Assembly: GCA_036503065.1 (NCBI GenBank)
Contig: DASXXM010000151.1
Span: 2,539-66,538 of the forward strand
DNA length: 64,000 bases
Direction of reading: 5' to 3'
From: Pseudonocardiaceae bacterium
Lineage (GTDB): Bacteria; Actinomycetota; Actinomycetes; Mycobacteriales; Pseudonocardiaceae
Shown: one piece after another, positions 9,902 through 53,185 of the stretch
Layout: the number at the start of each line of letters is the position of its first letter
How positions within the stretch are numbered: the stretch's first letter is position 1
Program-made: the position numbers and the translations under genes
Notes under the pieces: model-generated
The model's database searches: none
What the model was told of the DNA's origin: nothing
What the model saw: only the letters and a program-made list of their open reading frames with translations

Positions 9902-9986
9902 CTGGTGCCCTCCGGTCGTCCAGCAGTGCGGCGCATCCGCAACGTATCGTTTCGTGCTTCGTTCGGCAAATCTCGTTCGGTCCTAA

Positions 9987-12611: not shown

Positions 12612-12613
12612 CC

Positions 12614-26497: not shown

Positions 26498-26498
26498 G

Positions 26499-28065: not shown

Positions 28066-28069
<4 letters not shown>

Positions 28070-29484
28070 TGGTTCGTAACTTCCTTCACCGTTGTTGATG
28101 GGACAAGCATCTCGGCGTTCGCCGCCGGAGCAACCGGATTCGTCCGGGCTCCTGGAAGGATTGTAGCCACAACGAGCGACCCGACGCCCGCCACGCAAGC
28201 CGCCGCGACCATCGGGGCCGTCAGATTGTGAAAGCCTGTCGACGCCACACTTCCCATGATCGCGATTCCCAGAGCCCCACCGAGGTTCATCGCCACGTCG
28301 GCGACAGCGGAGCCGGCTGCCGACTGCTCGGCCGATGCGGCGCCTACGATCGATTCCACCGAGGTGGGAGCGCCGAATCCGATGCCGAGTCCGAGTACCC
28401 CGAGTGCGATGAGCACCCGCAGGCCCGACGGAGGCCCGCCGATCGCCATAAGAACCATGGACGCGGCGACCAGCAACGGGCCGAGCGCCGACACCGGTCC
28501 GAGTCCGAACCGCTGTACCAACTTGGGTGCTTGCGGCGCGACAAGAATCACCGTGCACATCCCGAGCAGGTGCAGCCCGGCGATCAGGGGACGGTCGTGC
28601 AAGGTGAGCTGCAAATACTGGGTTACTACGAACAAACCCCCGGTCACCCCGAAGAAGATGGTCGAGATCGTCACGAGCGGTCCGCCGAACAAGCGGTTGG
28701 AGAAGACGGCGTGACTGAGCATCGGGGTGCGCGTGCGCCGCTCCCACCAGATGAAGGTGGCCAGGACAGCAGCGCCACCAACGATGAGTGCCAGCGTGCG
28801 GGCCGACGTCCAGCCCTGTGACGGCGCCTCGATGATGCCGCCGACGAGCGCAAGCGAGCCGACGACCGAGAGCACCAGGCCAGGAATGTCCAAGCCGAGA
28901 TGGTTCTCGTTGCGGGATTCGGGGATCAGCAGCAGGCATCCGACGATCGCGGCGGCGATGATCGGAATATTGATCAGGAAGACCGAGCCCCACCAGAAGT
29001 TCTGCAGCAACAGTCCCCCGACGATCGGGCCCAACGGGACGCCCAGGGTGGCGACGCCCACCCAGAGCCCCATGGCCTTGGCCCGCTCCGCAGGTGGGAA
29101 CACGTCCCGCAGGATCGCGAGGGTGCAGGGCATGATCATGGCCGCACCCAGCCCCATACCGGCTCGGGCCGCGATCAGCATTTCCGGTGACCGGGCGAAG
29201 GCCGCTGCCGATGAGGCGGCGAGAAAGACCAGCAGACCGACGAGAAACCCGCGCCGACGACCGAAACGGTCCGCGAACGCGCCGAAGAAGAGGATCGGCG
29301 CGGCGAAGGCCAGCGCGTAGGCATCCACCGTCCACTGCAGCTGCCCGGTGGACGCGCCGAGCTCGGTTTTGATCGACGGCACCGCCATGGTGATGATCAG
29401 ACTGTCCAGAGCCGTGATGATCAGCGCAAGACACATGACGCCGAGGATCGCCCAACGGCGTGGGTGACCCGTGGTCGAGTTCAT
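28066..29484 (-). CDS. MFS efflux transporter, 14-TM DHA2 (EmrB/QacA)-like
   Basis: 472 aa. It has LDSLIITMAVPSI and the FGRRRGFLVG loop motif. Confidence 0.85.
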
Positions 29485-29585: not shown

Positions 29586-30200
29586 GTGAGTCAACCCACG
29601 GGCGATGTAGGCGCCGCGCTGGTGGCTGCGGCCAGCGACCTGCTGACGCGCGGCGGTCCCGAGTTCGTGACCCTGCGCGCGGTCGGCAGGGCAACCGGCG
29701 TGTCGCGCACGGCGCCGTACCGCCACTTCACCGACAAGGATGACCTGCTCAGTGCGGTAGCCGCGGAGAGCATGAATCGTCTCACCGAGGCGATGCGGCA
29801 CGGGGCGGCCGACGAGGCCGCGGGAGGGACGCCACTTTCCCGGGCCTGCCTCGGCTACGCGAGAGCCGCGATGGAGCGACCGGCCCACTATCGCCTCATG
29901 TTCGGCGACTTTCCGATCAACAGGCCGAGTGCGGAGCTCGAACGCGCGGCGGACGAGTGCGCCAAGGTGCTCTACGACCTCGTCGCCGAAGCCCAGAGCG
30001 AGGGCGTTCTCCCCGCGGTCGACGTACGCGAAGTCGGCACGTTGCTGTGGGCGGCACTGCATGGCTTGGTGGACCTCACACTGACTCGCCATCTCCATGA
30101 ACCGCGCACTGTCGACGGCGTCGATGCCATGCCGACCCTTGTCGCGGTTGCCATACAGAACTGGGTCACCGGCAAAGCCGCTCCCCACGTCCGATCGTAA
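29586..30200 (+). CDS. TetR/AcrR-family transcriptional regulator
   Basis: 204 aa. The HTH is TLRAVGRATGVSRTAPYRHFTDKDDLL. It is divergent from the efflux pump. Confidence 0.85.
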   Translation: MSQPTGDVGAALVAAASDLLTRGGPEFVTLRAVGRATGVSRTAPYRHFTDKDDLLSAVAAESMNRLTEAMRHGAADEAAGGTPLSRACLGYARAAMERPAHYRLMFGDFPINRPSAELERAADECAKVLYDLVAEAQSEGVLPAVDVREVGTLLWAALHGLVDLTLTRHLHEPRTVDGVDAMPTLVAVAIQNWVTGKAAPHVRS

Positions 30201-30342
30201 CGCGCTTCGACGGACGCCTCCCGTATTTGGCCACTGTTCGCGTGCAACCCATGGACGCGTTCCGTCGGTCGCAACGAAACCTGGGACTTCCCGTATCGTC
30301 GCCACTGCTCCGATGGAGCCATGGACGAAGGGAAGCCAAAAA

Positions 30343-31296
30343 ATGATGCGGAGAACAAGTCTGGCCGGCCTCGACGTGTCGGCACAGGGACTCGGCTGCA
30401 TGGGTATGAGCGAATGGTATGGCCCGACCGACTGGGACCGGTCGATCTCGACGATCCGGCGCGCTATCGACCTTGGCGTAACGCTTTTCGACACCGCCGA
30501 CATCTATGGTGCCGGTCACAACGAGGTGCTCGTCGGCCGTGCGATCACCGGGCACCCCGACGCCGTGCAGATCGCGACGAAGTTCGGCATCGATCGCAGC
30601 GCGGGCGACGGCAATCGAGTGCATCGCGGCGAGGCCGCCTACGTCAAGCGGTCGTGCGATGCGTCGCTGCTGCGACTCGGTATCGACACGATCGACCTGT
30701 TCTACCTGCACCGACCGCCGGACACCGCAGAAATCGAGGAGACGGTCGGCGCGATGGGTGAGTTGGTGGCCGAAGGCAAGGTGCGCCACCTAGGACTGTC
30801 TGATGTGGATAGTAGTCTGCTGCGCCGGGCACACGCGGTGCACTCGATTGCAGCAGTGCAGACCGAGTACTCGTTGTGGAGCCGCAAGCCCGAGTCGACG
30901 CTGTTGAACACTATGCGCGAGCTGGGTGTCGGGCTGGTGCCGTACGCGCCGCTCGGACGCGGCTTCCTTGCGGGCAGCGTGACCCGTGATTCGCTGGTGG
31001 ACAGTGACATCCGCACATCGCGACCCGCCATGCAGTCCTGGCAGGCGATCCCGTCTATCGCACAGGTCGTGGACTCGATCGCCGAGGCACAGGCGGTGAC
31101 ATCGGCGCAAGTCGCGCTCGCCTGGGTTTATGCCCAGGAGGTCCGCTGGGGCGTCCCCATCGTGCCGATTCCGGGTACGAAACGGGTGGCCTGGCTGGAG
31201 CAGAATGTGCGGGCGATGGACGTATCGCTCACGGACAGTGAGCGCGCCACTCTCGACGGTATTCCGGATCGGTCCGCGGCCGCACAGCAGGCGTAG
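30343..31296 (+). CDS. aldo/keto reductase
   Basis: Starts at MMRRTSLAGLDVSAQGLGCMGMS. Motifs are DTADIYG, IDLFYLHRPD-type and GLSDV. Confidence 0.85.
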   Translation: MMRRTSLAGLDVSAQGLGCMGMSEWYGPTDWDRSISTIRRAIDLGVTLFDTADIYGAGHNEVLVGRAITGHPDAVQIATKFGIDRSAGDGNRVHRGEAAYVKRSCDASLLRLGIDTIDLFYLHRPPDTAEIEETVGAMGELVAEGKVRHLGLSDVDSSLLRRAHAVHSIAAVQTEYSLWSRKPESTLLNTMRELGVGLVPYAPLGRGFLAGSVTRDSLVDSDIRTSRPAMQSWQAIPSIAQVVDSIAEAQAVTSAQVALAWVYAQEVRWGVPIVPIPGTKRVAWLEQNVRAMDVSLTDSERATLDGIPDRSAAAQQA

Positions 31297-31444: not shown

Positions 31445-31944
31445 ATGTCGATTGATTCGCGCGCATACGAACATAAGACTATTCACGACGTCGTGGTCAA
31501 TCAGATCGCAGCCATCGGCAGGACACCGAGTTAATTTCACGTGACGCGACTCGTCGGACGCGTATAGAACGGCCACATTCGGCCAGGATCTCTGCAAACG
31601 GCTGCACTTCGGCCGGGCGGGAATTCAGTGACCAGACGGGTGGTCGTCACCGGCATCGGCGCGGTCACCCCCTCGGCATCGGCGCCGACACGCTGCACGC
31701 GGCTGCCGTACGCGGCGACAACGGAATTGTCGACGGCATGGGCCGATGTGCGGAATTCGACGGCCAGAAGATGCTCGGCCGCCGCGAAGCGCACCGGATG
31801 GACCGGTTCTGCCAGCTCGCCGTCGCGGCCGTCGATCGGGCCGGCTGGGCCGGCTGGGCCGGCTCGCCGCCGGTGCCGGCGCAGCGGGTGCCGTGTGTGA
31901 TCGGCACCGCGATCGGCGGGCTCAACACGATCGAGTCGCAGCTG
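31445..31944 (+). pseudogene. decayed duplicate of the ACP gene and the first ~320 nt of the KAS II gene
   Basis: MSIDSRAYEHKTIHDVVVNQIAAIG resembles MSAALSGYDRKSVEEFVIEQVEATG. The stretch 31600-31944 aligns by eye to 32600-32945, including the GGGAATTCAGTGA junction. The frame is lost after VVVTGIGAVTP by a 1-nt deletion, and there is a GGGCCGGCT triplication. Confidence 0.75.
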
Positions 31945-32366: not shown

Positions 32367-32630
32367 ATGTCTGCTGCACTGTCCGGGTACGACCGAAAGT
32401 CGGTCGAGGAATTCGTCATCGAGCAGGTCGAGGCGACCGGCGCCGACCCCGACCTGATCGCCACCACGGCCACCCTCGAATCGCTCGGCCTCGACTCGCT
32501 GGACGTGGTTGAACTCAGCCAGGGCGTCAAGAAGCAGATGGGGATCCCGGTGAGCCCGAAGGACTTCGTCGACGCGCTGACCATCTCCGACGCGATCGCG
32601 GTCATCTGCCGTCAGGCGGGTATTCAGTGA
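32367..32630 (+). CDS. acyl carrier protein
   Basis: 87 aa, with AAGGGG upstream as RBS. The phosphopantetheine site is LGLDSLDVVEL. Confidence 0.85.
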   Translation: MSAALSGYDRKSVEEFVIEQVEATGADPDLIATTATLESLGLDSLDVVELSQGVKKQMGIPVSPKDFVDALTISDAIAVICRQAGIQ

Positions 32631-33832
32631 TTCGACGGGTGGTCGTCACCGGCATTGGCGCGGTCACCCCGCTCGGCATCGGAGCCGACACGTTGCACCT
32701 GGCCGCCGTGCGTGGCGACAGCGGGATCGTCGACGGCGTCGGTCGGTGCCGGGACTTCGACGCGGCGAAGCTGCTCAGCCGCCGCGAGGCGCATCGGATG
32801 GACCGCTTCAGCCAATTCGCCGTCGTCGCCGCGGACGAAGCCGTCGAACAGGCGGGCTGGGCCGGCGCGCCGCCGGTGCCGGCCCAGCGGGTGCCGTGCG
32901 TGATCGGCACCGCGATCGGCGGCCTCAGCACCATCGAGTCGCAGCTCGAGACACTGCGCATCGAGGGTGCCGAGTACGTGTCGCCGCTGACCGTGCCGAT
33001 GCTGATGGGCAATGCCGCCGCGGCACAGCTGTCGATGCGGTACGGCCTGCGCGGCGAAGCCTCCGCGCTGGTCGCGGCGTGCTCCGGCGGGGCGCAGGCC
33101 ATCGTGGCGGGTGTCCGCGCGATCCGCTCCGGCGAGGCCGACGCGGCACTCGTCGGCGGCGCGGAGGCCGCGATCACCGAGTTCACCATGGCGATCTTCA
33201 CCGCTGCCGGCGCGCTGTCGCCGAGCGGGCGATCGGTGCCGTTCGACCGGAAGCGGGACGGCTTCCTACTCGGCGAAGGTGCCGGCGTCCTGGTACTCGA
33301 AGAGGCCGAGGTGGCGCGGGCACGGGGCGCCCGGGTGCTCGGCGAGATCCTGGGCTACGGCGTGACGACCGACGCCTACCACGTGACGGCCCCCGAGCCC
33401 TCCGGCGTCGCGGCCGCGGCCGCGGTGCGCGCCGCACTGGCCGACGGCGGGATCGACGCAGGCCAGGTTGCGTACATCAACGCGCACGGGACCGGCACGG
33501 CACTCAACGACAGCGCGGAGGTGAACGCGTTGCGTGCCGCGCTCGGCGACGCGCTCGCCGGCATCCCGATCTCCTCGACCAAGTCGTATCTCGGCCACCT
33601 GATCGGCGCGGCGGGCGCGGTCGAGGCGATCGCGACGCTACAGGCGCTCCGGCACCGGATCGCGCCACCGACGTGCGGACTCACCGAACCCGACGAGGCC
33701 CTCGGCGAGCTCACGCACGTACCGGCGGCACTGCCACTGGCACGGTCCGGTGCCGACCGTGTCGGGTTGACCAACTCGATGGGCTTCGGCGGTCACAACG
33801 TGACCATCGCGATCAGGGCGTGGGAAAGATGA
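32627..33832 (+). CDS. beta-ketoacyl-ACP synthase II (FabF-type, Cys-His-His)
   Basis: 401 aa with a GTGA overlap onto the ACP gene. Motifs are VAACSGGAQAI, INAHGTGT and KSYLGHLIGAAG. Confidence 0.85.
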   Translation: MIRRVVVTGIGAVTPLGIGADTLHLAAVRGDSGIVDGVGRCRDFDAAKLLSRREAHRMDRFSQFAVVAADEAVEQAGWAGAPPVPAQRVPCVIGTAIGGLSTIESQLETLRIEGAEYVSPLTVPMLMGNAAAAQLSMRYGLRGEASALVAACSGGAQAIVAGVRAIRSGEADAALVGGAEAAITEFTMAIFTAAGALSPSGRSVPFDRKRDGFLLGEGAGVLVLEEAEVARARGARVLGEILGYGVTTDAYHVTAPEPSGVAAAAAVRAALADGGIDAGQVAYINAHGTGTALNDSAEVNALRAALGDALAGIPISSTKSYLGHLIGAAGAVEAIATLQALRHRIAPPTCGLTEPDEALGELTHVPAALPLARSGADRVGLTNSMGFGGHNVTIAIRAWER

Positions 33833-34827
33833 GCGTAGACGTCAGCGACTTGCCGAGACAGCTCAATTGGCCGATGCCCGAGCCGGAACTGCTCGGGATG
33901 CGCAACACGACAACCGTCGATCGGCGCCTCGCGCACAAAGAATCCACCGAACAGGTGTTCATCAACGACGTGGCGCGCGACGGTGAAACGCTCGTCGCGC
34001 TCGGTGAACTACCGCGGTCGCACCGGTTCTTCAATGATTCCGCGATACCGCGCTACGACGCGTTGCTGCTCGCCGAGTTCATTCGACAGGGTGTCGAGGT
34101 CATCGCACACGCGTTGCTCGATGTGCCGCTGACCAGCCAGTTCGTCCTACGTTCGGTAGAACTGGAGCTGGTCGACCGACAGGCGACGGTGATCGGTGAC
34201 CGGGCGATGCCGGTTGTCGTCGCGCTGCCCGCCAGTCAGGTGCGGCGCAATCGCGGCGGCATGGCATACGCGGCGACCGGGCCGGTGTACTGCTTTATCG
34301 ACGGCCGCCCGGCCGCGCGGTTCGGCGGCAAGGTCGGATTCCTGGCCTGTGACACCTACGGCGAAATCCGTGCGGCCGCACCGCTCGGCGTGCCGGGTGG
34401 CTCGGTTGCCGCGTGCGAGCCGCGGGCCGTCGGCAGGCAGTTCCGGGAGAACGTCTTCATCGGCAGGCCGTGGGGATATCCGCGCGGGGCGAAGTGCCTT
34501 GTCGTGCCGCGGCCGCATCCGGCCTTCTTCGACCGGCCGCTGGACCACTACCCCGGCATGATGCTCGCCGAGGCGGCACGCCAACTGGCCGCGAGTTCGC
34601 TGGCCGCGGACGCGCACGTCCCGATCTCGTCCGTGTGCACGGACTATGCCGCCATGGACTTCGTGTCCTTCGCCGAACTCGACACGTCGCCGACTTTGAC
34701 GGTGGTCGACTGGATCGACCTTGACGACGGCGCCGAGCTGACGGTCACCGCCCGGCAAGGCGCCCGCACCATGTCGACGTACACCTTCCGGATGTTCCAC
34801 GACGACTACAGCGAGGATCGGTCATGA
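33829..34827 (+). CDS. AfsA/ScbA-family butenolide/gamma-butyrolactone synthase, second copy
   Basis: Starts at MSVDVSDLPRQ with an ATGA overlap. Signatures are HKESTEQVFINDV...SHRFFNDS and FFDRPLDHYPGMMLAEAARQL. It is hidden inside the artefactual 693-aa ORF 32746..34827. Confidence 0.8.
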   Translation: MSVDVSDLPRQLNWPMPEPELLGMRNTTTVDRRLAHKESTEQVFINDVARDGETLVALGELPRSHRFFNDSAIPRYDALLLAEFIRQGVEVIAHALLDVPLTSQFVLRSVELELVDRQATVIGDRAMPVVVALPASQVRRNRGGMAYAATGPVYCFIDGRPAARFGGKVGFLACDTYGEIRAAAPLGVPGGSVAACEPRAVGRQFRENVFIGRPWGYPRGAKCLVVPRPHPAFFDRPLDHYPGMMLAEAARQLAASSLAADAHVPISSVCTDYAAMDFVSFAELDTSPTLTVVDWIDLDDGAELTVTARQGARTMSTYTFRMFHDDYSEDRS

Positions 34828-35798
34828 CGGCGATCGTGTCCGGGGTCGGCGCCGCGCTGCCCGAGACGGCAGTGGACAACGACGCGTTCGGGGCGCTCGG
34901 CGTCACCGATGAGTGGATCGTCGGCCGAACCGGGGTTCGGCGGCGCTACTGGCTCAAGCCGGACGAGCGACTTGTCGACCTCGCGGCGGCGGCGAGTGCG
35001 ACCGCACTGGCCGACGCCGGGGCCGACGCCGCGGACGTGGACTTCGTGATCGCCGCGACGACGACACCCGACCGCGTCTCACCGGGACTGGCGCCCGAGA
35101 TCGCCCATCTGCTCGGCATTCCGCGGGCCGGCGCGGTCGATATGAACGGGGCGTGCACGGGCTTTCTCTATGCCCTGGACTATGCGCTGAATCGGGTCGA
35201 GGCCGGCTCCGCGGATCGCATTCTCGTCATCGGCGCCGATGCCATGTCACGGATCACCGACGAGTCCGATCGCAATACGGCGGTGCTGTTCGGCGATGCC
35301 GCGGGGGCGGTCGTGGTCGAGGCGGCACGGGGCGCCGCTTGCGACGGCTGCGCCCAGTACCTGTCCTTCGGATCGGCGGGCGAGCACGCCGATTCGCTGT
35401 GCGTGGACCGGGAAACCGGGGTCGTGCGAATGGACGGGGGCGAGGTCTACGCGTACGCCGTTGACGCGATGGCGAACGAGATCGAGGCGGTGCTGCTCGC
35501 CTGTGAGGTCGAACAGGACGATGTCGACCTGCTGGTGTGTCACCAGGCCAACAGCCGGATCGTCAACGCCGTCGCGCGGCGACTGAAATGGGGCGTCGAC
35601 CGCGCCGCCTGTTACGTGGATCAGTTCGGGAACACCTCGTCGGCGTCCATTCCGGTGGCCATGTGGCAGGCGCAGGCCGACGGCAGGCTCAAGCCGGGGC
35701 ACCGGGTCGGGCTCAGCGCCTTCGGGGCCGGATTCACCTGGGGCGCGGGCGTCATCAACTGGAAAGGGTGCGGTCACGCGGGTCAGCAGGCCGGCTGA
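34824..35798 (+). CDS. beta-ketoacyl-ACP synthase III (FabH-type)
   Basis: 324 aa. The Cys-His-Asn triad contexts are MNGACTGFLYAL, LVCHQANSRI and FGNTSSASIP. Confidence 0.85.
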   Translation: MTAIVSGVGAALPETAVDNDAFGALGVTDEWIVGRTGVRRRYWLKPDERLVDLAAAASATALADAGADAADVDFVIAATTTPDRVSPGLAPEIAHLLGIPRAGAVDMNGACTGFLYALDYALNRVEAGSADRILVIGADAMSRITDESDRNTAVLFGDAAGAVVVEAARGAACDGCAQYLSFGSAGEHADSLCVDRETGVVRMDGGEVYAYAVDAMANEIEAVLLACEVEQDDVDLLVCHQANSRIVNAVARRLKWGVDRAACYVDQFGNTSSASIPVAMWQAQADGRLKPGHRVGLSAFGAGFTWGAGVINWKGCGHAGQQAG

Positions 35799-35837: not shown

Positions 35838-36902
35838 GTGCTTAATCTGGATCACCTGAACGGCTCGGACCACATGCCCGGTTCGACGGCCGCAACCGCG
35901 TTGTCGGTCCGCGATGACGAGGAGACGATACTGCTGCGCGGCTACCGGGCCATGGTCATCGGCCGCCGGTTCGACCAGCAGGCGACCAACCTCGCCAAGC
36001 AGGGTTATCTTGCGGTGTATCCCTCGTCGTACGGACAGGAAGCCTGCCAGATCGGCGCGGTGTCGGCACTGCGTGCGACGGACTGGCTGTTTCCCACGTA
36101 TCGCGACTCGATGGCCATCGTGACGCGAGGCGTCGACCCGGCGCAGACCCTGACTCTGCTGCGCGGTGACTGGCACTGCGGCTACGACCCGGCAGCCACG
36201 CGCACCGCGCCGCACTGCACGCCACTGGCCACCCAGGCATCGCACGCCGTCGGGCTGGCCATGGCGGCGCGACTGGCGGGTGACGACACGGTTGCCGTCG
36301 TGCTCTGCGGCGACGGCTCCACGAGCGAGGGCGACTTCCACGAGGCGGTCAACCTGGCGGCCGTGTTCGCCGCACCCGTGGTGTTCCTGGTGCAGAACAA
36401 CGGATATGCGATCTCGGTCCCGCTGGCCAAGCAGACCAGGGCGCGCTCGCTCGCGGCGAAGGCGCCCGGCTACGGCATCCCGGGGGTCCAGATCGACGGC
36501 AACGACCTGCCCGAGGTGTACGCGGCGATGACGGCGGCCGTCGAGTTGGCGCGCGGCGGTGGCGGGCCCACCCTGATCGAGGCGATCACCTACCGCGTCG
36601 GACCGCACACCAACGCCGACGACCCGTCCCGCTATCGCGACGAGGCCGAGGCACTCGCGTGGCGGCGCAAGGACCCGATCGATCGGCTCGGCGCCACCCT
36701 GCGCGCACGTGGCCTGCTCGACGACGACCTGCAGCAGGCGATCGACGCCGATGCCGAGGAGTTCGCGGCACGGACCCGGCGCACGGTGATCGAGTACCCC
36801 GCGCCGACGGCCGCGGAGATGTTCGCGCACGTGTACGCCGCGTTGCCACCACACCTGGCCGAGCAGGCCGACCGCTACGGCCGCGAAGGCGGTGCCGCAT
36901 GA
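35838..36902 (+). CDS. 2-oxoacid dehydrogenase E1 alpha subunit (BCKDH/PDH type, ThDP-dependent)
   Basis: 354 aa with a GTG start after GAGGGAGCGGAG. The ThDP motif region is CGDGSTSEGDFHEAVNLAAVFAAPVVFLVQNNGYAIS. Confidence 0.85.
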   Translation: MLNLDHLNGSDHMPGSTAATALSVRDDEETILLRGYRAMVIGRRFDQQATNLAKQGYLAVYPSSYGQEACQIGAVSALRATDWLFPTYRDSMAIVTRGVDPAQTLTLLRGDWHCGYDPAATRTAPHCTPLATQASHAVGLAMAARLAGDDTVAVVLCGDGSTSEGDFHEAVNLAAVFAAPVVFLVQNNGYAISVPLAKQTRARSLAAKAPGYGIPGVQIDGNDLPEVYAAMTAAVELARGGGGPTLIEAITYRVGPHTNADDPSRYRDEAEALAWRRKDPIDRLGATLRARGLLDDDLQQAIDADAEEFAARTRRTVIEYPAPTAAEMFAHVYAALPPHLAEQADRYGREGGAA

Positions 36903-37918
36903 CAACGGATGTCGCGTCCACTGTGGACGTCAAGCAGAGGGTTGCCACGGTTTCCATGGTCAAGGCGATCAACACCGCGTTGCGCGACGCGATGCTCGCG
37001 GACGACCGCGTGGTGATGTTCGGCGAGGACGTCGGCCGACTCGGGGGCGTGTTCCGGGTGACCGAGGGACTTTCCGCACGGTTCGGCGATGAGCGCTGTT
37101 TCGACACGCCGATCGCCGAGGCCGGGATTCTCGGCGCGGCGATCGGTATGGCCGTCTACGGCGCCCGGCCCGTGGTGGAGATGCAGTTCGACGCGTTCGC
37201 CTACCCCGCGTTCGAACAGATCATCAGTCACCTGGCCAAGATGCGGAACCGGACGCGGGGCGCGCTCAGCACGCCGGTCGTCGTGCGGGTGCCCTACGGC
37301 GGCGGCATCGGCGCGGTGGAGCACCACAGCGACTCGTCCGAGGCCTACATGACGCACACTCCCGGGCTGCACATCGTGACACCGGCCACGGTGTCCGACG
37401 CGTACGGCCTGTTGCGGCAGGCGATCAGGGGCGCGGACCCGGTGCTGTTCTTCGAGCCGAAGCGCCTGTACTGGGACACCGAGGAACTCGCGTTGCCGGT
37501 CGAAGTGGAGCCGATCGGCCGGGCCGTGGTACGCAGGCCCGGCACCGACGTCACCCTGATCACGTACGGGCCCGCGCTGCCGCTGGCGCTGGCGGCCGCG
37601 GACGCCGCCGCGGAGGCCGGTTACGACGTGGCCGTGGTCGATCTGCGGTCGCTGGTGCCGTTCGACGAGGACACCGTGTGCGATGCGGTGACGAAGACCG
37701 GTCGCGCCGTGGTGGTGCACGAGGCATCGGGATTCGGCGGGTTCGGCGCGGAGGTGGCCGCTCGGGTGACCGAGCGGTGCTTCAACTATCTGGAGGCGCC
37801 GGTGCGCCGGGTGACCGGACTGGACGTGCCGTACCCGCCGCCGCAGTTGGAACGCTTCTACCTGCCGACCGTCGGCCGAATCCTGGACGCCATCGCGACC
37901 ACGTTCGGAGATTCGTAA
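36899..37918 (+). CDS. 2-oxoacid dehydrogenase E1 beta subunit
   Basis: 339 aa with an ATGA overlap. Motifs are FGEDVGRLGGVFRVTEGL and DTPIAEAGILGAAIGMA. Confidence 0.85.
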   Translation: MTTDVASTVDVKQRVATVSMVKAINTALRDAMLADDRVVMFGEDVGRLGGVFRVTEGLSARFGDERCFDTPIAEAGILGAAIGMAVYGARPVVEMQFDAFAYPAFEQIISHLAKMRNRTRGALSTPVVVRVPYGGGIGAVEHHSDSSEAYMTHTPGLHIVTPATVSDAYGLLRQAIRGADPVLFFEPKRLYWDTEELALPVEVEPIGRAVVRRPGTDVTLITYGPALPLALAAADAAAEAGYDVAVVDLRSLVPFDEDTVCDAVTKTGRAVVVHEASGFGGFGAEVAARVTERCFNYLEAPVRRVTGLDVPYPPPQLERFYLPTVGRILDAIATTFGDS

Positions 37919-38430
37919 TGGATCGCCTGACCGAATGCGTGTTCCGGCTGCCCGATCTCGGCGAGGGCCTGGTGTCCGGCGAGATCATCGAATGGCTCGT
38001 CAAGGTCGGCGAGCAGGTCGAGGTGGACCAACTGGTCGTGGTGGTCGAGACGGAGAAGACCACCGTCGAACTGCCGATCCCCTTCGGGGGAACGGTGGTT
38101 CGGCTGCACGGCGAGCCCGCGGACCGGCTGCCGGTCGGCGCGCCGCTGGTCACCATCGAGGCGGCGGAAGTCCCGGACCGGCCGGCGAGCGCGATCACCC
38201 ATCTCGTCGGGCAGGGTCCGAACCTGGCTGCCGCGGACGCCGACGACCGGCTGGCCGGCATTCGCAGGCTGCCGCAGAAGACACAGCGCGAGCGTGTCGC
38301 GGCATCGCCCGCGGTGCGCCGACTGGCCCGCGAACTGGACGTGGACCTGAGCGGCGTCGTCGGCACCGGTATGGGCGGCGCGATCACGAAGGACGACGTG
38401 TCCGCCGCGAGCCGGAATGCCGAAAGCTGA
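37918..38430 (+). CDS. truncated E2: lipoyl domain plus E1/E3-binding domain only, no acyltransferase core
   Basis: 170 aa with a TAATG overlap. The lipoyl-lysine context is VVVETEKTTVELP. The subunit-binding domain is ASPAVRRLARELDVDLSGVVGTGMGGAITKDDV. The ORF then ends, and the next gene is MaoC-like. Confidence 0.8.
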   Translation: MDRLTECVFRLPDLGEGLVSGEIIEWLVKVGEQVEVDQLVVVVETEKTTVELPIPFGGTVVRLHGEPADRLPVGAPLVTIEAAEVPDRPASAITHLVGQGPNLAAADADDRLAGIRRLPQKTQRERVAASPAVRRLARELDVDLSGVVGTGMGGAITKDDVSAASRNAES

Positions 38431-38885
38431 TGGCGACCTTCGACAGCATCGACGCGCTGACCGCGGCCGTTGGCCAGACGCTGGGCACCACCGAGTGGCA
38501 GGTGGTGTCGCAGGAGCGAATCCGGGCGTTCGCGGACGTCACGGGTGACCATCAGTGGATTCATGTGGACGAGGAGCGTGCTCAGGTCGAGAGCCCGTTC
38601 GGCACGACGGTCGCGCACGGGGCGCTCACGCTGGCGCTGGTGCCGGTGTTCGTGGGCGAACTGGTCCGGGTGCCCGGCGCCAGCATGGTGGTCAACGGCG
38701 GACTGGAGCGGGTCCGCTTTCGCGCGCCGGTGCCGGCAGGGGCCAAGGTGCGCGGAATGGTCAAGCTGCTGAGCACGGTCGAACTGGCCGACGCGACGCA
38801 GGTGGTCGCGCGGGCCACCGTGCAGGTGTACGGGGAACAGAAACCGGCGTGCGTCGCTGATCAGGTGATGGTGTTGCATGACTGA
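38430..38885 (+). CDS. MaoC-like (R)-specific enoyl-CoA hydratase/dehydratase
   Basis: 151 aa with the hot-dog motif FADVTGDHQWIHVDEERA. Confidence 0.8.
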   Translation: MATFDSIDALTAAVGQTLGTTEWQVVSQERIRAFADVTGDHQWIHVDEERAQVESPFGTTVAHGALTLALVPVFVGELVRVPGASMVVNGGLERVRFRAPVPAGAKVRGMVKLLSTVELADATQVVARATVQVYGEQKPACVADQVMVLHD

Positions 38886-39711
38886 CGAACCCGCGGTGCG
38901 CCGCGAAACGTTCGGTTCCGTGGTGTTGCTGACGATGAACCGCCCGGCACGCGGCAACACGTTGGACGCCGAGGTACTCGACGGACTCGTCACGCACACC
39001 ACCGAACTGGTCGACGACGACAACGTGCGCGCGCTCGTGCTGACCGGCGCGGGCGAGCATTTCTCGCTTGGCGGCGCGCTGACCGATTTCGAGGAAGCGC
39101 TGTCCGGCGGTGCACACGGTGCGCTCAGGTACTGCAAGGAACGCACCGAAGCGCTGGCGACTGTCGTGTTGAATCTGTTCGACATGCCGTTTCCGGTGAT
39201 CGCCGCGGTGAACGGGCAGGCGGCCGGCGCCGGTTTCTCCCTGACGCTGGCCTGTGACCTTCGGATCGCTGCCCAGCACGCAAAGCTGCATTTCGCGTAC
39301 GGCTCGCTCGGGGCGTCCACCGACGGCGGGATGAGCTGGCTGCTGCCCAGGGTGGTCGGTCCGGCTCGAGCACTGGCGCTGCTGCTGGAACAGCCGATCA
39401 TCCGGACGCCACGGGCCAGGCAGGAGGGTCTGGTCACCGAGGTGGTGCCGGCCGCGGAATTGCGCGACCGAGCATTGCGAATGGCGACGGACCTCAGCCA
39501 GAACGCGCGTCATTCGGTCACCGCGGCAAAGCGGCTCGTGCATGCGTCGGCGTTTGCCACGCTGGCCGAGCACATGCGAGAGGAACACCGTACGTTCGGC
39601 GACGGCCTGCTCGGTCCGGACATGCGGACCGCGCTCGCCGCTCGTCGGATCGGCGAGATGCCTTCGTTCGGTCTATCTGGAGGAAGCGATGAGTATCAGC
39701 CAGTCCGATAA
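38878..39711 (+). CDS. enoyl-CoA hydratase/isomerase (crotonase) family protein
   Basis: 277 aa. Motifs are LTGAGEHFSLGG and AAVNGQAAGAGFSLTLACDLRIA. Confidence 0.8.
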   Translation: MTDEPAVRRETFGSVVLLTMNRPARGNTLDAEVLDGLVTHTTELVDDDNVRALVLTGAGEHFSLGGALTDFEEALSGGAHGALRYCKERTEALATVVLNLFDMPFPVIAAVNGQAAGAGFSLTLACDLRIAAQHAKLHFAYGSLGASTDGGMSWLLPRVVGPARALALLLEQPIIRTPRARQEGLVTEVVPAAELRDRALRMATDLSQNARHSVTAAKRLVHASAFATLAEHMREEHRTFGDGLLGPDMRTALAARRIGEMPSFGLSGGSDEYQPVR

Positions 39712-39973
39712 CATGTCAGCCGCGCCGGCCGACATTACGGACCTACGCGAGGAGATCGACCGGCTTGATTCGGAGATCCTGCGGTTGGTGAAGCGCAGGG
39801 CGGCGGTGTCGCAGGACATCGGTCGGCAGCGGATGGCGTCCGGTGGTACCCGGATCGTGGTCAGCCGGGAAATGGCGGTGCTGAATCGGTATCGCGAGCT
39901 GGGGCCGGAAGGTCGACAACTGGCCATGGCGCTGCTGACTCTTGGCCGCGGTCGATTGGGACGAGTCCTGTAA
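39689..39973 (+). CDS. AroQ-class chorismate mutase (small, CM_2)
   Basis: 94 aa with GGAGGA as RBS. The sequence is LREEIDRLDSEILRLVKRRAAVSQDIGRQR...SREMAVLNRY. It overlaps the crotonase 3' end by 23 nt. Confidence 0.7.
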   Translation: MSISQSDNMSAAPADITDLREEIDRLDSEILRLVKRRAAVSQDIGRQRMASGGTRIVVSREMAVLNRYRELGPEGRQLAMALLTLGRGRLGRVL

Positions 39974-42479: not shown

Positions 42480-43775
42480 ATGAGACGACGACTGGCGGCC
42501 GTGACAGCGATGGCGGCGGTGGCGCTCGCGGCCTGCGGGAGCACGTCGTCGGGCGGCGGCAGCGGTGGCAGTGGCCCGCTCACCATCGCCGACCTCGCGC
42601 CGTTCACCGGACCGGACGCCAACCTCGGGCCGATCTACCTGGCCTCCTGCTTCGGCGCGACCAGGGCCATCAACAACGCGGGCGGCGTGCTCGGCCACAC
42701 GGTCAACTGCAAGTCCGTGGACACCAGGGGCGACCCCGCCGACGCGGTCCCGGCCACCCGGCAGATGTTCGCCAGCACCAGCAACCTCGCGCTGGTGATC
42801 GGCGTGACGTCGGACGAGGCGGCGTCGGTGGTGCCGATCATCAACTCGAACAAGACCGTCGTGTTCGGCATGACCGGCCAGTCCGAGTTCGACAGCACCC
42901 ACTTCGACTACTTCTACCGGCTGGTCGCGCCCGACCTGGACGAGTCGTACGCGATGGTCGCCATCGCCAGACAGAAGCACTACTCGAAGATCGCGCTGGC
43001 GTTCGGCAACGACATCGGCTCGCAGACCTTCGTCGCGCCTGCCGTCAGCGCCGTCAAGAAGGCCGGCATGACGCTGGTGGACAACGAAACGCTGGACCTG
43101 CACGCGACCACGTTCCGCACCGAGGCGGCCAAGATCGTCGCCGCGCACCCGGACGTCATCCTGACCGAGGCGCTCGGCGCCACCGCGGCCAGCTTCCTGA
43201 GTGAGGTCAAGCAGCTCAACGGCGGCACGATGATCCCGATCATCGGCACGTCGGCCACCATCGACCCGGCCTGGTACTCGTCGGTTTCCGGCGCGATCGG
43301 CGCGAGCACCCTGACCAGCAGCTACGTGGCCGACAACCTGGTGGTCGAGTCGACCGGGGCCGGGTACCTGGCCTTCTCGCAGAACCTGTTGGCGGAGAAG
43401 GGAAAGGTCGGCAACACCGGTAACTTCGACACCTATCTGACCGCGCCCGGCGCCGTGCACCTGTACGACGGGATCAACCTGGCGGCGCTGGCGATGATCG
43501 AGGCGAAGAGCACCGACGCCACGGTGTTCCGGCCGTTCGTCGAGAAGATCGGCAACGGTGTGCCGGGCGCCACCGTGGTGACCTCGTTCGCCGACGGTGT
43601 CGCTGCGCTCAAGGCGGGCAAGACCATCCGGTACGTCGGTCCTGGCGGTCCGACCAACTTCGACAGCTTCCACGACTCGACCGGACTGTTCGAAGTGGAC
43701 ACCTACGACGCCACCGGTCAGGTCAAGGTGGTCGGGACGTTGACACCGCAAGAGCTGCGGGCGCTGGCGGGATGA
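42480..43775 (+). CDS. ABC transporter substrate-binding lipoprotein (branched-chain amino acid type)
   Basis: 431 aa. The lipobox is AVALAACGS. Confidence 0.8.
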   Translation: MRRRLAAVTAMAAVALAACGSTSSGGGSGGSGPLTIADLAPFTGPDANLGPIYLASCFGATRAINNAGGVLGHTVNCKSVDTRGDPADAVPATRQMFASTSNLALVIGVTSDEAASVVPIINSNKTVVFGMTGQSEFDSTHFDYFYRLVAPDLDESYAMVAIARQKHYSKIALAFGNDIGSQTFVAPAVSAVKKAGMTLVDNETLDLHATTFRTEAAKIVAAHPDVILTEALGATAASFLSEVKQLNGGTMIPIIGTSATIDPAWYSSVSGAIGASTLTSSYVADNLVVESTGAGYLAFSQNLLAEKGKVGNTGNFDTYLTAPGAVHLYDGINLAALAMIEAKSTDATVFRPFVEKIGNGVPGATVVTSFADGVAALKAGKTIRYVGPGGPTNFDSFHDSTGLFEVDTYDATGQVKVVGTLTPQELRALAG

Positions 43776-44638
43776 ACCTGCTGCTGGCGTCGCTCGGCTT
43801 CGGGCTGGTGACCGCGGCCGTACTCGCGATCGCCTCGGTCGGGTTCACCATGCAGTTCGCGGTCACCGACGTGCTGAACCTGGCCTACGGCGCGGTGATG
43901 ATCGTCTGCGCCTACGTCGCCTACGCCGTCAACCAGGCCGGGATCTCGGTCTGGCTCGGCGTCGCGGTCGCCGCGGTGCTCGGTGCGCTGATCTCGGTGG
44001 CGCTGAACCGGGGCGTCTACACGCCGTTCCAGCGCAGGGGCACCTCGCCGATCGCGATCGTCATCGTGTCGCTCGGCCTGACCCTGATCCTGGAGTTCGG
44101 CCTGCAGGCGGTCGTCGGCGGCAACAACGTGTCCTACCGGGTCAGCCAGGGACCGACCCTGCACGTGGGTGGGCTGCAACTGACCGTGGTGCAGTTGGTG
44201 ATCATCGGGTTGAGCCTGGTCGCGATGCTGTCCGTGCACACGCTGCTGGCGTTCACCAAGCTGGGCAAGGCGATGCGGGCCACGGCGGCGGACAGGTCGC
44301 TGGCCCGCACCTGTGGCATCCGGACCGATCGGGTGGTCACCGTCACCTGGCTGCTCTCCGGTGCGCTGTGCGGCATCGGTGGCGCGGTCTTCGCCCTTGA
44401 CGCGGGCAGTTTCGGCGCCACCAGCACGGACCTGTTCCTGGTGCTGATCCTGGCCGCGGTGTTTCTCGGCGGCCCCGGCCAGTCCTACGGCGCGATGCTG
44501 GGCGCGCTGGTGATCGGGATCGGCACGGAGGTCAGCGCCGCGTACATCACGCCGGAATACAAGGACGTGGTGGCGTTCGTGCTGCTGCTGATCATGCTGG
44601 CGGTGCGCCCGACGGGCCTGCTCGGCTCGCGAGCCTGA
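43772..44638 (+). CDS. livH: branched-chain amino acid ABC permease (LivH-like)
   Basis: 288 aa, polytopic, with an ATGA overlap. Confidence 0.75.
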   Translation: MNLLLASLGFGLVTAAVLAIASVGFTMQFAVTDVLNLAYGAVMIVCAYVAYAVNQAGISVWLGVAVAAVLGALISVALNRGVYTPFQRRGTSPIAIVIVSLGLTLILEFGLQAVVGGNNVSYRVSQGPTLHVGGLQLTVVQLVIIGLSLVAMLSVHTLLAFTKLGKAMRATAADRSLARTCGIRTDRVVTVTWLLSGALCGIGGAVFALDAGSFGATSTDLFLVLILAAVFLGGPGQSYGAMLGALVIGIGTEVSAAYITPEYKDVVAFVLLLIMLAVRPTGLLGSRA

Positions 44639-44647
44639 GGGGGACGC

Positions 44648-46477
44648 GTGAGTAGCGGAATCGTCTTCTACCTCACCACGCTGCTGGTCTACGCGGGCGT
44701 GGACATCCTGGCGTGCCTCGGCCTGAGCCAGCAGTTCGGCGTTGCGGGGGTGACCAACTTCGGCTTCATCATCTTCCAGGCCGCAGGCGCCTACGCCGCG
44801 TCGGTGCTGTCGCTGCCCGGTGACGGTGCCAACGGCGGTTTCCAGAGCTATCTCGGTGGCTGGTCGCTGCCGTTTCCGCTGCCGTGGCTGGGTGCCGCGT
44901 TGGTCGGCGGGCTGCTGGCGGTGCCGTTCACGTTCCTGGTCGGCAGGCGGCTGCGGGGTGACTTCGCCGCGATCGGACTGCTCGTCACGGCGGTGATGGC
45001 GAACCTGCTGATCACCAACTACCGGCCGCTGTTCAACGGCTCGGCCGGCCTGTCGCTGGTGCCCGCGCCGCTGCAGGACCGGTTCAACCCGCAGTTGGTC
45101 GGCTACCAGTGGGGATACGCGGCCGCGGCACTCGTGCTGGCACTCCTGGTCTACCTGTTCCTGCGGCGGGTCACCGAATCGCCGTACGGGCGAACGCTGC
45201 GTGCCATGCGCGACAACGACGTGGTGGCCGACTCGCTGGGCAAGAACCTCGTCGCGCTGCGGCTGGCGATGCTGGTGCTCGGCGGCGCGGTCGCCGGGCT
45301 GTCCGGCGGCATCCTGGTCGGGTTCATCAACCTGTGGGCGCCGTCGGGCTGGACCTATGCGGAGACCATCGTGCTGTTCGCGGCGGTCATCATCGGCGGC
45401 GCCGGCAATCACCGGGGCGCGGTGCTCGGCGCGCTGCTGGTGCCGCTGCTGTTCGAGGAACTGACCAGGTTCATCCCGGCGTTCGGGCCACCGGGGCTGA
45501 TTCCCGCGTTGCAGTGGGTGGCCATCGGGCTGTTGATCGTGGTGTTCCTCTGGTTCCGGCCCCAGGGCGTGCTGCCGGAACGACGTCGGGTCACCACACG
45601 CTTCGCCACCGCGCCAACCGTTGTCGCGGACGAGGACGACTGGGTGTTGCCGGGCGCGGTCACGCCGGACCCGGCGAAGCTCAGCGTGGTGATCTCCGAT
45701 CCGATACCGACCGAGCCGTCCGAGGTGGTCCTGCGGGCGGATGCGTTGACCCGCACGTTCGACGGGGTCGCGGTGGTGTCCGGCGTGACGTTCGAACTGC
45801 GGCGGGGCCGGCTGACCGGACTGATCGGACCGAACGGGGCCGGCAAGTCCACCACACTGGCCATGCTGGCCGGCACTCTCGCGGCGACATCGGGTCGGGT
45901 GCTGTTCGACGGCCGGGACGTGACCCGGCTGCCGGCGTTCCGGCGGGCACGTGGCGGGCTGCTGCGCACGTTCCAACTGGCCAGCGAGTTCAAGCGCCTC
46001 ACCGTGCTGGAGAACCTGTTGTCCGCGGTGCCGCGCCAGCCGGGTGACACCTTCCACGGCGCGGTGCTGGGTCGCCGCTACTGGCGGGCCGCCGAGGAAC
46101 GGGCGATCGACCGCGCCGAGGTGATGCTCGACGAATTCGGGCTGGCCGGCTACGCCAACCAGTACGCGGGCGATCTCAGCGGCGGGCAGCGGCGGCTGGT
46201 GGAGATCATGCGGGCGCTGATGGCCGAGCCGTCCGTGCTGTTGCTGGACGAACCGGTCGCCGGCGTGCATCCGCATCTCGCGCACGAGATCGGCGAGCAC
46301 CTGCTGCGGCTGTGCGCCGGCGGAATGACGATCATGATGGTCGAGCACGAACTCGCGATCATGGACGAGTTCTGCGACCCGGTGGTGGTGATGGCCGAGG
46401 GGCAGGTGCTGGCGGAGGGCACCATGCAGGTGTTGCGTGGCCGTTCCGACGTCGTGGAGGCATATCTTGTCGGCTGA
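44648..46477 (+). CDS. LivM-like permease fused to LivG-like ATPase
   Basis: 609 aa. The N-terminal half is a permease. The C-terminal half has Walker A GPNGAGKST and signature LSGGQRRLVEI. Confidence 0.8.
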   Translation: MSSGIVFYLTTLLVYAGVDILACLGLSQQFGVAGVTNFGFIIFQAAGAYAASVLSLPGDGANGGFQSYLGGWSLPFPLPWLGAALVGGLLAVPFTFLVGRRLRGDFAAIGLLVTAVMANLLITNYRPLFNGSAGLSLVPAPLQDRFNPQLVGYQWGYAAAALVLALLVYLFLRRVTESPYGRTLRAMRDNDVVADSLGKNLVALRLAMLVLGGAVAGLSGGILVGFINLWAPSGWTYAETIVLFAAVIIGGAGNHRGAVLGALLVPLLFEELTRFIPAFGPPGLIPALQWVAIGLLIVVFLWFRPQGVLPERRRVTTRFATAPTVVADEDDWVLPGAVTPDPAKLSVVISDPIPTEPSEVVLRADALTRTFDGVAVVSGVTFELRRGRLTGLIGPNGAGKSTTLAMLAGTLAATSGRVLFDGRDVTRLPAFRRARGGLLRTFQLASEFKRLTVLENLLSAVPRQPGDTFHGAVLGRRYWRAAEERAIDRAEVMLDEFGLAGYANQYAGDLSGGQRRLVEIMRALMAEPSVLLLDEPVAGVHPHLAHEIGEHLLRLCAGGMTIMMVEHELAIMDEFCDPVVVMAEGQVLAEGTMQVLRGRSDVVEAYLVG

Positions 46478-46478
46478 C

Positions 46479-47225: not shown

Positions 47226-47274
47226 CATGGCGCGCTGGCGCGCGCGGGTCGTCGGGTCTGGGATCATCGTCGCC

Positions 47275-53179: not shown

Positions 53180-53185
53180 GCCGGC

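Follow-up and report, generated by a model that had tools for sequence, protein, structure and literature searches.

The 64-kb stretch of DNA that was analysed as a whole (hereafter the window) carries a gene cluster in which the two subunits of a 2-oxoacid dehydrogenase-type E1 and a short E2-like protein are encoded together with an acyl carrier protein (ACP), an elongating and a priming ketosynthase (KASII and KASIII) and the A-factor-type protein AfsA. Stop/start codon overlaps join genes along the run from the ACP gene to the chorismate mutase gene. The features of this region are as follows.

24092-24865, minus strand: short-chain dehydrogenase/reductase (SDR), part of an AfsA-HAD-SDR unit
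24882-25502, minus strand: HAD phosphatase of the same unit
25499-26545, minus strand: AfsA2, second AfsA paralogue (PF03756, 3.5e-35), first gene of the unit
26873-27298, minus strand: SnoaL-like protein
28066-29484, minus strand: MFS transporter
29586-30200, plus strand: TetR-family regulator
30340-31296, plus strand: aldo/keto reductase (AKR; start approximate)
31635-31943, plus strand: frameshifted partial copy of the KASII gene, a relic of its 5' end that is 83% identical to 32634-32946 by blastn
32367-32630, plus strand: ACP (PP-binding, 7e-10; likely ATG at 32367, open frame from 32301)
32627-33832, plus strand: KASII, FabF-like elongating ketosynthase (ketoacyl-synt N and C domains)
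33829-34827, plus strand: AfsA1, A-factor-type double hotdog protein inside the cassette (PF03756, 7e-34)
34824-35798, plus strand: KASIII, FabH-like priming ketosynthase (Pfam; closest solved structure S. aureus FabH, 4e-68)
35838-36902, plus strand: E1 alpha, TPP-binding, BCKDH/PDH alpha2beta2 type (PF00676, 1e-75)
36899-37918, plus strand: E1 beta (Transket_pyr and Transketolase_C; best solved match T. thermophilus BCKDH E1 beta, 6e-94)
37918-38430, plus strand: stand-alone protein of 170 aa with lipoyl domain, linker and peripheral subunit-binding domain (PSBD), an E2 remnant without catalytic core (Pfam, AF2)
38430-38885, plus strand: MaoC-like (R)-hydratase/dehydratase (PF01575, 6e-23)
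38878-39711, plus strand: enoyl-CoA hydratase/isomerase (ECH, crotonase) family protein (ECH_1, 2e-41)
39689-39973, plus strand: chorismate mutase type II (CM_2, 3e-11; 23-nt overlap with the ECH gene)

Gene content of the cassette

Across nine cassettes, namely that of the window and those of eight further loci, a conserved set consisting of ACP, KASII, KASIII, E1 alpha, E1 beta, the lipoyl-PSBD protein and at least one AfsA was present in every case, and the lipoyl-PSBD gene was always located 3' of the E1 genes. Genes for the MaoC-like and ECH proteins were found in 7/9 and 8/9 cassettes, respectively, and the order ECH-chorismate mutase recurs in L004. The MaoC-like protein keeps the Asp and His of its GDHQWIH motif, and ACP orthologues are 83-87 aa long. 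An AKR gene is also found in L086 and L093. In L002, an aldehyde dehydrogenase gene lies 3' of the lipoyl-PSBD gene.

AfsA1 and AfsA2 of the window share 29% identity. The AfsA-HAD-SDR unit is also found in L001, L086, L088, L092 and L093, and in L003 AfsA-HAD occurs without an SDR within the stretch fetched. With two AfsA proteins, the HAD phosphatase and the SDR, the window contains the AfsA, phosphatase and reductase genes of an AfsA-type gamma-butyrolactone/butenolide cluster, and the Rothia version of the cluster has been called 'butyrolactone' by antiSMASH (PMC10668837).

A lipoyl-PSBD protein without a catalytic core

In the 170-aa protein, Pfam detected a Biotin_lipoyl domain (PF00364) at residues 9-80 (E=1.8e-16) and an E3_binding domain (PF02817), the PSBD, at 127-161 (E=1.2e-15, model positions 1-35 of 36), and no other domain. 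Its lipoylatable lysine, Lys47, lies at the hairpin tip in the context VVETEKTTVELP. These results bear out an earlier note on this DNA, which had described a 170-aa E2 ending in a stop after its lipoyl domain and PSBD, with an ETEKTT lysine context and a MaoC-like gene next to it. In the AF2 model, the lipoyl domain (1-85) forms a beta-barrel with a pLDDT of ~95 and the PSBD (127-170) is helical (~87), and the linker between them, with values below 50 at 94-124, is predicted to be disordered.

The open reading frame begins with ATG, preceded 7-11 nt upstream by GGAGA, and ends with TGA; its codon-position GC content (0.78/0.47/0.87) is similar to that of the neighbour genes. It is tightly packed between them: the E1 beta start overlaps the E1 alpha stop (ATGA), the E1 beta stop overlaps the lipoyl-PSBD start (TAATG), and the lipoyl-PSBD stop overlaps the ATG of the MaoC-like gene (TGATG). 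A sequencing or assembly frameshift concealing a full-length E2 had been considered in the earlier note. Logan SRR11832861 and JGI 3300036772 are, however, independent assemblies that contain the identical protein with the same flanks, and its homologues form a conserved short family, so that such an error is excluded, and a pseudogene left by recent truncation of a normal E2 can practically be dismissed as well.

No C-terminal 2-oxoacid_dh (CAT-like) core with a DHRxxDG motif follows the PSBD. With a threshold as permissive as E<=10, PF00198 still matched none of the three frames read forward across 37600-39000, and a custom E2-core HMM, built from 77 E2 catalytic domains, returned negative scores only in the six frames of the 64-kb window; the same HMM scored control loci at 1e-65 to 1e-92. 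Neither profile found a catalytic domain hidden in 38430-38885, and annotation of 37918-38885 gave the lipoyl and E3_binding domains followed by the MaoC-like protein. As previously proposed, the core is therefore missing and has not been split into a neighbouring gene. E2s that are truly split occur elsewhere and look unlike the window locus: in L089 and L091 the PF00198 gene comes immediately after, and in L089 an E3 gene follows it.

A complete 2-oxoacid dehydrogenase operon encodes E3 with E1 and E2, and E3 too is missing here. In the 64-kb window, the best tblastn match had an E value of 1.2, no CxxxxC-P-[ST]-K motif was present and no E3 was found among the Pfam-scanned ORFs, in agreement with the operon without E3 noted earlier; tblastn and motif searches of the eight further cassette loci likewise found none. 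Bacterial E3 is often unlinked to E1/E2 anyway, and an operon that lacks it is expected to rely on a borrowed housekeeping enzyme. In the pepteridine pathway, too, E3 has been described as coming from the host (PMC5384830).

Conservation and spread of the truncated family

The 50 closest homologue clusters (43-89% identity) consist exclusively of proteins of 138-219 aa with lipoyl and E3_binding domains and no catalytic domain. Among 23 family members, with identities down to 44%, Lys47, the N-terminal LPDLGEGL and the PSBD motif VRRLAR are invariant (23/23), a pattern suggestive of purifying selection on the protein. In this set the core of the lipoyl domain is invariant and conservation is highest in the PSBD, after which only 5-15 variable residues follow. 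The equivalent of Lys47 is also invariant in all 77 full-length E2 proteins compared, which were taken from neighbouring bkd-type operons. No didomain fused to another domain was found among the best 150 matches from 1.84 billion representatives, and a plasmid search returned full-length E2 only. The cassette is carried by members of Streptomyces (S. collinus among them) and Micromonospora (among them Micromonospora sp. CP192055) and by Rothia dentocariosa, a species of the human mouth, and the truncated state has been kept in at least four actinomycete orders.

Origin of the E1 and residues of KASIII

The closest solved structures to E1 alpha are G. stearothermophilus PDH E1 alpha and BCKDH E1 alpha. 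Among the matches listed, E1 alpha and E1 beta are 56-64% and 63-72% identical, respectively, to housekeeping actinomycete bkd E1 alpha and E1 beta. In a neighbour-joining tree, the cassette E1 beta sequences are monophyletic and placed next to actinomycete bkd E1 beta. A profile search of the genome contigs yielded, among the matches listed, housekeeping E1 alpha-E1 beta-E2 operons only; these were used as comparators, and the bkd operons among the matches listed carry a full-length E2 of 351-549 aa. By sequence comparison, the cluster E1 is best assigned to the BCKDH type and to a single clade with its origin in actinomycete bkd operons. The HH motif of E1 beta, the His pair used in reductive acylation, is kept.

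KASIII retains the catalytic triad C112/H244/N274 together with R249, W32, R36 and R151, and F87 is replaced by Ser. Of the positions between which E. coli FabH holds the CoA adenine, W32 and R36 are conserved in 6/6 cassettes and R151 in 5/6, the Rothia KASIII having Ala at R151.

Comparison with known systems

The E2 proteins of 2-oxoacid dehydrogenases are textbook three-part enzymes. The BkdC-type E2 of actinomycete bkd operons shares with the window protein the lipoyl domain, the [T/H]-L-V-G linker motif, the PSBD and the position after E1 alpha-E1 beta. The window protein, in contrast, lacks the entire C-terminal 2-oxoacid_dh core (~230 aa), and hence both acyltransferase activity and an oligomeric core, and its gene is embedded in a KASIII/ACP/AfsA cluster, whereas BkdC belongs to a catabolic operon. 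The lipoyl-PSBD architecture is the same as that of laboratory didomains (E. coli E2o 1-176 and E2p 1-190; G. stearothermophilus), which are acylated by E1 and function with the catalytic domain in trans; unlike these truncations, the window protein is the product of a natural, conserved gene.

Other systems share parts of this organization. QncN/QncL/QncM (quinocarcin, naphthyridinomycin) and SclQ1-4 (scleric acid) likewise combine a TPP-dependent E1-like enzyme, a lipoyl protein and a dedicated ACP in clusters without E3. The window protein differs from these carrier-loading modules in having a PSBD and no acyltransferase domain, and the window E1 is BCKDH-type rather than transketolase-like. 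In the pepteridine pathway, the E2-T-C fusion (Photorhabdus plu2796) is comparable in that a thiotemplated pathway is supplied by an E1/E2 resembling those of 2-oxoacid dehydrogenases, host E3 being borrowed; its E2-like part is, however, fused to T and C domains, whereas the window protein is unfused and its core is deleted. The E3-binding protein (protein X) of eukaryotic PDH joins a lipoyl domain and a PSBD to a catalytically inactive core-forming domain, and no core of any kind follows the PSBD here. Resemblance to the glycine-cleavage H protein was limited to a GCV_H match at E=0.17, and the window protein has a PSBD, which H protein and stand-alone lipoyl proteins lack.

No account of the cassette or of a natural core-less E2 was found in the literature. 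As far as literature searches show, a natural and widely conserved E2 with arm and docking domain and without acyltransferase core has apparently not been described before.

Proposed mechanism and alternatives

We propose that the lipoyl-PSBD protein is a functional stand-alone lipoyl acyl carrier, a BkdC-type E2 reduced to its N-terminal half, and that its arm is most likely discharged in trans; this reading is held tentatively, at a probability of roughly 0.45. The E2 catalytic core would have been lost once, in the cassette ancestor. The PSBD would dock the didomain on the BCKDH-type E1 (alpha2beta2) of the cluster, which would decarboxylate a 2-oxo acid and reductively acylate the lipoyl-Lys47. 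A branched-chain substrate is possible, and phenylpyruvate is hinted at by neighbouring chorismate mutase and prephenate dehydratase genes, such aromatic-pathway neighbours occurring in only 4/9 cassettes (chorismate mutase in the window, prephenate dehydratase in L092 and L093, DAHP synthase in L003). The acyl group would serve as starter unit for KASIII, ACP and KASII, and AfsA could use the beta-ketoacyl-ACP thus formed to make a compound of the butyrolactone or butenolide type. Primary metabolism would provide lipoylation and re-oxidation by E3. The acyl-dihydrolipoyl arm would most likely be discharged to CoA in trans, either by a housekeeping E2 core or by plain thiol-thioester exchange at low flux, and the resulting acyl-CoA would be a normal substrate for KASIII.

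Actinobacterial OdhA already works with lipoyl domains on another protein: the lipoyl domains reside on a full E2p, and the discharging catalytic domain is kept on a different polypeptide, fused to E1o. The window system differs from the OdhA/E2p arrangement in having no associated catalytic domain at all. In E. coli OGDH, a separate lipoyl-PSBD didomain and catalytic domain reached ~18% of the kcat/Km of the intact E2 in vitro (PMC5986005). The earlier claim that canonical transfer of the acyl group to CoA is ruled out thus stands in cis, where there is no core, and does not hold in trans, given this didomain precedent. Two considerations count against discharge in trans: loss of the core costs efficiency if acyl-CoA is the goal, and a PSBD-tethered didomain cannot be tethered to the housekeeping core as well. 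Retention of the truncated state across the actinomycete orders also hints at an acceptor other than CoA.

A possible but rather unlikely alternative is a direct, CoA-independent hand-off, in which the S8-acyl-dihydrolipoyl arm acylates the active-site Cys of KASIII, or KASIII passes the acyl group to ACP, the didomain serving as an ACP-like carrier of starter units. The constant association of the E1 alpha-E1 beta-didomain module with KASIII and ACP (9/9 cassettes), the overlapping or abutting KASIII and E1 alpha genes of L003, L086, L092 and L093, and the long-maintained loss of the core speak for it, as does the finding that no CoA-acyltransferase (catalytic core) is encoded within +/-10 kb of eight cassettes. 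The QncN/L/M, SclQ1-4 and pepteridine systems offer precedents for carrier-protein priming by E1/E2-like proteins, but all of them keep a catalytic E2 (or C) domain for the transfer. Moreover, no didomain-KASIII fusion or other physical link was found among the top matches, and the CoA-nucleotide-binding residues are kept in KASIII. Conservation of W32, R36 and R151 would fit an ordinary acyl-CoA primer and argues mildly against direct hand-off, although it could be structural.

It is improbable that a dedicated partner, either a stand-alone E2 catalytic domain or a didomain-specific acyltransferase, is encoded at a distant locus. The visible part of the genome is 64 kb only, and split E2s made of a didomain gene and a PF00198 gene do exist in other bacteria; in those cases, however, the catalytic gene is the very next one, none was found in the window or the eight further cassette loci, and secondary-metabolite clusters normally hold dedicated partners together. 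A non-carrier role, in which the didomain mainly serves to stabilize or assemble the E1 heterotetramer or to recruit E3, and the acyl group leaves E1, for example, as an aldehyde or acid, would agree with the PSBD being the most conserved part and with the aldehyde dehydrogenase gene of L002. It is very improbable, as an invariant lipoyl lysine and lipoyl-domain core would be unexpected for an unused arm and the E1 beta His pair for reductive acylation is kept.

Two proteins of the cluster were considered as substitutes for the catalytic domain and rejected. AfsA1 might have acted as a hotdog acyltransferase unloading the arm, but L086 and L093 have the didomain without AfsA1. The MaoC-like protein is encoded in the right position with an overlapping start, but is no general solution, since L001 and L002 lack it.

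Implications

The core-less E2 poses a clean mechanistic question, namely what unloads the arm. If the arm delivered straight into KASIII/ACP, without CoA or an E2 core, this would be a previously unknown start of type II FAS/PKS, and unloading by KASIII/ACP would give lipoate a new role, linking amino-acid-derived 2-oxo acids directly to fatty-acid/polyketide priming. In addition, the cassette forms the centre of an orphan 'butyrolactone' cluster that extends from soil Streptomyces to the oral commensal Rothia dentocariosa, a spread which suggests that its product may act as a signal of interest in ecology and possibly in association with a host. Engineered pathways might also be supplied with unusual starter units by means of the compact E1 alpha-E1 beta-didomain module of three genes.

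Additional sequence observations

In L093, prephenate dehydratase is fused to what looks like a further lipoyl domain; its motif, E-S-M-K-M, is of the biotinyl type and thus gives no evidence for extra lipoyl arms. Three features were rejected as markers of the truncated family, namely the E-K-T lysine context (as opposed to D-K-A), the absence of the Arg normally present at the 'GxI' turn of the PSBD, and HLVG in the linker: in the comparison with the 77 full-length E2 proteins, all three proved to be shared with normal BkdC-type E2. RRLPxK before the PSBD was the only motif of those compared that is enriched in the truncated family. In the KASII relic upstream of the ACP gene, the tblastn matches to aa 1-15 and aa 15-111 lie in different frames.

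A lipoyl-PSBD protein in a coupled AfsA operon

An earlier note had described an E2 of only 170 aa, consisting of a lipoyl domain and a peripheral-subunit-binding domain (PSBD) followed by a stop, and this description was borne out by Pfam, which placed PF00364 at residues 9-80 (1.8e-16) and PF02817 at residues 127-161 (1.2e-15) and detected no further domain in the protein. An AlphaFold2 model, with 23 family members as input, showed a confident beta-barrel (residues 1-85, pLDDT ~95), a disordered linker (94-124, pLDDT <50) and a helical PSBD (pLDDT ~87). Together, the Pfam domains and the model identify the protein as a textbook lipoyl-PSBD "didomain". The following features are referred to by window position:

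25499-26545, - strand: AfsA2, with HAD and SDR genes
33829-34827, + strand: AfsA1, in the FAS-like operon
37918-38430, + strand: didomain, 170 aa, ATG start preceded by GGAGA, TGA stop
39689-39973: chorismate mutase, overlapping the ECH gene

The didomain gene lies in an operon with translational coupling, in the order ACP, KASII, AfsA1, KASIII, E1alpha, E1beta, didomain, MaoC, ECH and chorismate mutase. Its start overlaps the E1beta stop (TAATG) and its stop overlaps the start of the MaoC-like gene (TGATG), and its codon-position GC (0.78/0.47/0.87) resembles that of the neighbouring genes. Upstream lies a divergent unit of AfsA2, a HAD phosphatase and an SDR, together with SnoaL-like, MFS, TetR and aldo/keto reductase genes. 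The two AfsA paralogues are just 29% identical. Just upstream of the ACP gene, a 313-nt stretch at 31635-31943 (+) matches 32634-32946, the 5' end of the KASII gene, at 83% identity; frameshifted and spanning residues 1-111 only, it is, as read from the sequence, a relic partial duplicate of that gene.

Absence of a catalytic core and of E3

No 2-oxoacid_dh match was found in the three forward frames of 37600-39000, even at E ≤ 10. In addition, an HMM was trained on 77 catalytic domains of full-length E2s from related operons and run with all filters off; across the six reading frames of the 64 kb it scored negative throughout, against 1e-65 to 1e-92 for control loci. Neither an E3 query nor the redox-disulfide motif of E3 had a match in the window, and Pfam scans of its remaining large ORFs revealed neither an E2 core nor an E3. 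The missing core, the missing E3 and the MaoC-like identity of the next gene thus all stand as the earlier note had them.

The two cases that would overturn this picture, a frameshift hiding a full-length E2 and a catalytic domain in the next gene, were also considered. Two other metagenomes independently yielded the same didomain between the same flanks. Among 5.8 billion proteins searched, the 50 nearest clusters (43-89% identity) were all of 138-219 aa with just lipoyl and PSBD, the first match with a catalytic domain appearing at 43% identity; these results rule out the frameshift and make an artefact of any kind extremely improbable. Separation of the catalytic domain into the next gene does occur in the short lipoyl-PSBD ORFs of two unrelated bacteria (L089, 8001-9359; L091, 8001-9256), and not at the window locus. 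In L089, an E3 gene follows the catalytic-domain gene, and both parts of the split E2 share a frame, possibly reflecting an in-frame stop or a sequencing error.

Conservation of the cassette in actinomycetes

Eight further loci with a family member were fetched, from Streptomyces collinus (L001), Micromonospora (L002), uncultured actinomycetes (L003, L086, L092, L093) and, most likely, Rothia (L088, L090), whose sibling protein clusters go under the NCBI name of the human oral commensal Rothia dentocariosa. The window, too, stems from an uncultured actinomycete, and Pseudonocardiaceae MAGs and Kutzneria are the nearest named relatives of a penicillin-binding protein encoded in it. Each of the eight loci encodes at least one AfsA alongside ACP, KASII, KASIII, both E1 subunits and the didomain, and neither an E2 catalytic domain nor an E3 occurs within ±10 kb; counting the window, MaoC is present in 7/9 cassettes and ECH in 8/9. 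L086 and L093 have AfsA of the second type only, and L002 has a single AfsA. The Rothia-type cassette is highly represented in sequence data: its protein clusters (P0044, P0052, P0055, P0057) comprise 732-951 member sequences, with didomains of 196-221 aa. It corresponds to the "butyrolactone" BGC reported by antiSMASH surveys (PMC10668837), which is not known to have been characterised. In L092, a LuxI-type autoinducer synthase (13590-14264; PF00765, 9e-39) lies beside the cassette, placing two distinct signal-synthase families next to each other.

Three elements do not vary among 23 family sequences with identities down to 44%: Lys47, the opening LPDLGEGL of the lipoyl domain and the P-x-V-R-R-L-A-R helix of the PSBD. 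Judging by these alignments, the didomain is therefore retained under selection. An RRLPxK motif directly before the PSBD (residues 116-121; window ~38263-38280) is enriched in the truncated family, with Arg117 in 20/23 members, and is not conserved among the 77 full-length E2s; it could be a docking motif, in a segment that the model predicts to be disordered.

The core-less didomain is a solid, conserved and directly testable observation. Since it lacks the catalytic domain, it does not qualify as an E2 acyltransferase, and the JGI names that label family members as such are inappropriate; the NCBI name "biotin/lipoyl-containing protein" is accurate but uninformative. By analogy, the protein would act as do the didomains made in the laboratory by the Perham and Jordan groups. 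Functionally, it groups with E1/E2-like modules that supply starter units in secondary metabolism, but without their transfer domain. Full-text literature searches found no account of this core-less protein or of the cassette.

Origin of the E1 module and proposed substrate

The E1 of the cassette belongs to the heterotetrameric BCKDH/PDH type, with 56-64% (E1alpha) and 63-72% (E1beta) identity to its counterpart in actinomycete bkd-like operons, where a normal E2 of 351-549 aa is encoded. In a neighbour-joining tree, six cassette E1beta sequences formed one clade with all 76 housekeeping sequences outside, which is modest evidence because the tree has no bootstrap values. The simplest history is a single bkd operon duplication, a single loss of the catalytic domain and long retention. 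The E1beta His pair, which takes part in reductive acylation in such enzymes, is kept (EHHSDS, with GHHHSQS at the aligned position in T. thermophilus).

Shikimate/phenylalanine pathway genes adjoin 4/9 cassettes, namely, besides the chorismate mutase of the window:

L092, 12442-13293: prephenate dehydratase after the cassette
L093, 11710-12888: prephenate dehydratase after the cassette
L003, 16572-17939: DAHP synthase near the cassette

Given these three enzymes, phenylpyruvate, a 2-oxo acid, is a candidate substrate of E1. Position 87 of KASIII is Ser in 6/6 cassettes and Phe in E. coli FabH, where it limits primer size. The gene neighbours suggest phenylpyruvate or a prephenate-derived 2-oxo acid as substrate rather than a branched-chain one. 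The L093 protein is an unusual fusion of prephenate dehydratase and ACT with an N-terminal biotinyl-type domain (LESMKMEIPV).

Unloading of the lipoyl arm

The gene set provides a dedicated E1, a dedicated lipoyl arm with an E1/E3-docking domain, a full complement of priming and elongating ketosynthases with an ACP of their own, and AfsA. The PSBD would dock on E1beta, as in the PDH of G. stearothermophilus, and E1 would convert the 2-oxo acid to the S-acyl-dihydrolipoyl arm, whose acyl group would prime KASIII; AfsA would then act on the resulting beta-ketoacyl-ACP. For homologues of AfsA, transfer of a beta-ketoacyl group to dihydroxyacetone phosphate is described (PMC13500789). E3 and lipoylation enzymes would be borrowed from primary metabolism, as described for the pepteridine pathway (PMC5384830).

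How the arm is unloaded may be read in several ways, among which transfer in trans to CoA is given a probability of about 0.45. In support of this reading, actinobacterial OdhA runs on lipoyl domains borne by another protein, and the cassette KASIII retains the CoA-adenine-binding residues W32 and R36 in 6/6 and R151 in 5/6 cassettes; the Cys-His-Asn triad and the ACP-docking Arg249 are also kept. Furthermore, E. coli OGDH was reconstituted from a separate didomain and catalytic domain, at 0.19 versus 1.07 x10^6 M-1 s-1 (PMC5986005). Direct transfer from the arm to KASIII or ACP, as the earlier note had proposed, is rather unlikely, and is nevertheless favoured by the strict linkage of the module with KASIII and ACP and by the absence of any acyltransferase from every cassette examined; it would be odd for a pathway needing acyl-CoA to drop its own CoA-transferase and stay without it. 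One sequence-based test leans against this more exciting reading, and the known carrier-loading E1/E2-like systems (QncL, SclQ4 and plu2796) all retain the catalytic domain, so that such a route would be new chemistry for lipoate. A dedicated catalytic domain encoded at a distant site is improbable, and a non-carrier role of the didomain slightly more so.

Other loci in the window

Read from translations, an operon for a Liv-type branched-chain amino-acid ABC transporter (42480-47895, +) follows a few kb downstream, with no evident link to the cluster. A separate NRPS-like cluster (2147-13801) encodes a pair of adenylation-thiolation proteins, one of which has an FkbM-type methyltransferase embedded in it, and a condensation domain standing on its own; a flavin amine-oxidase-like gene, two ABC exporters and a PLP enzyme also belong to it. 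Finally, a 1343-aa RHS/YD-repeat protein (48396-53794, -), downstream of WXG100-like and YbaB-like genes, looks like part of a polymorphic toxin locus.
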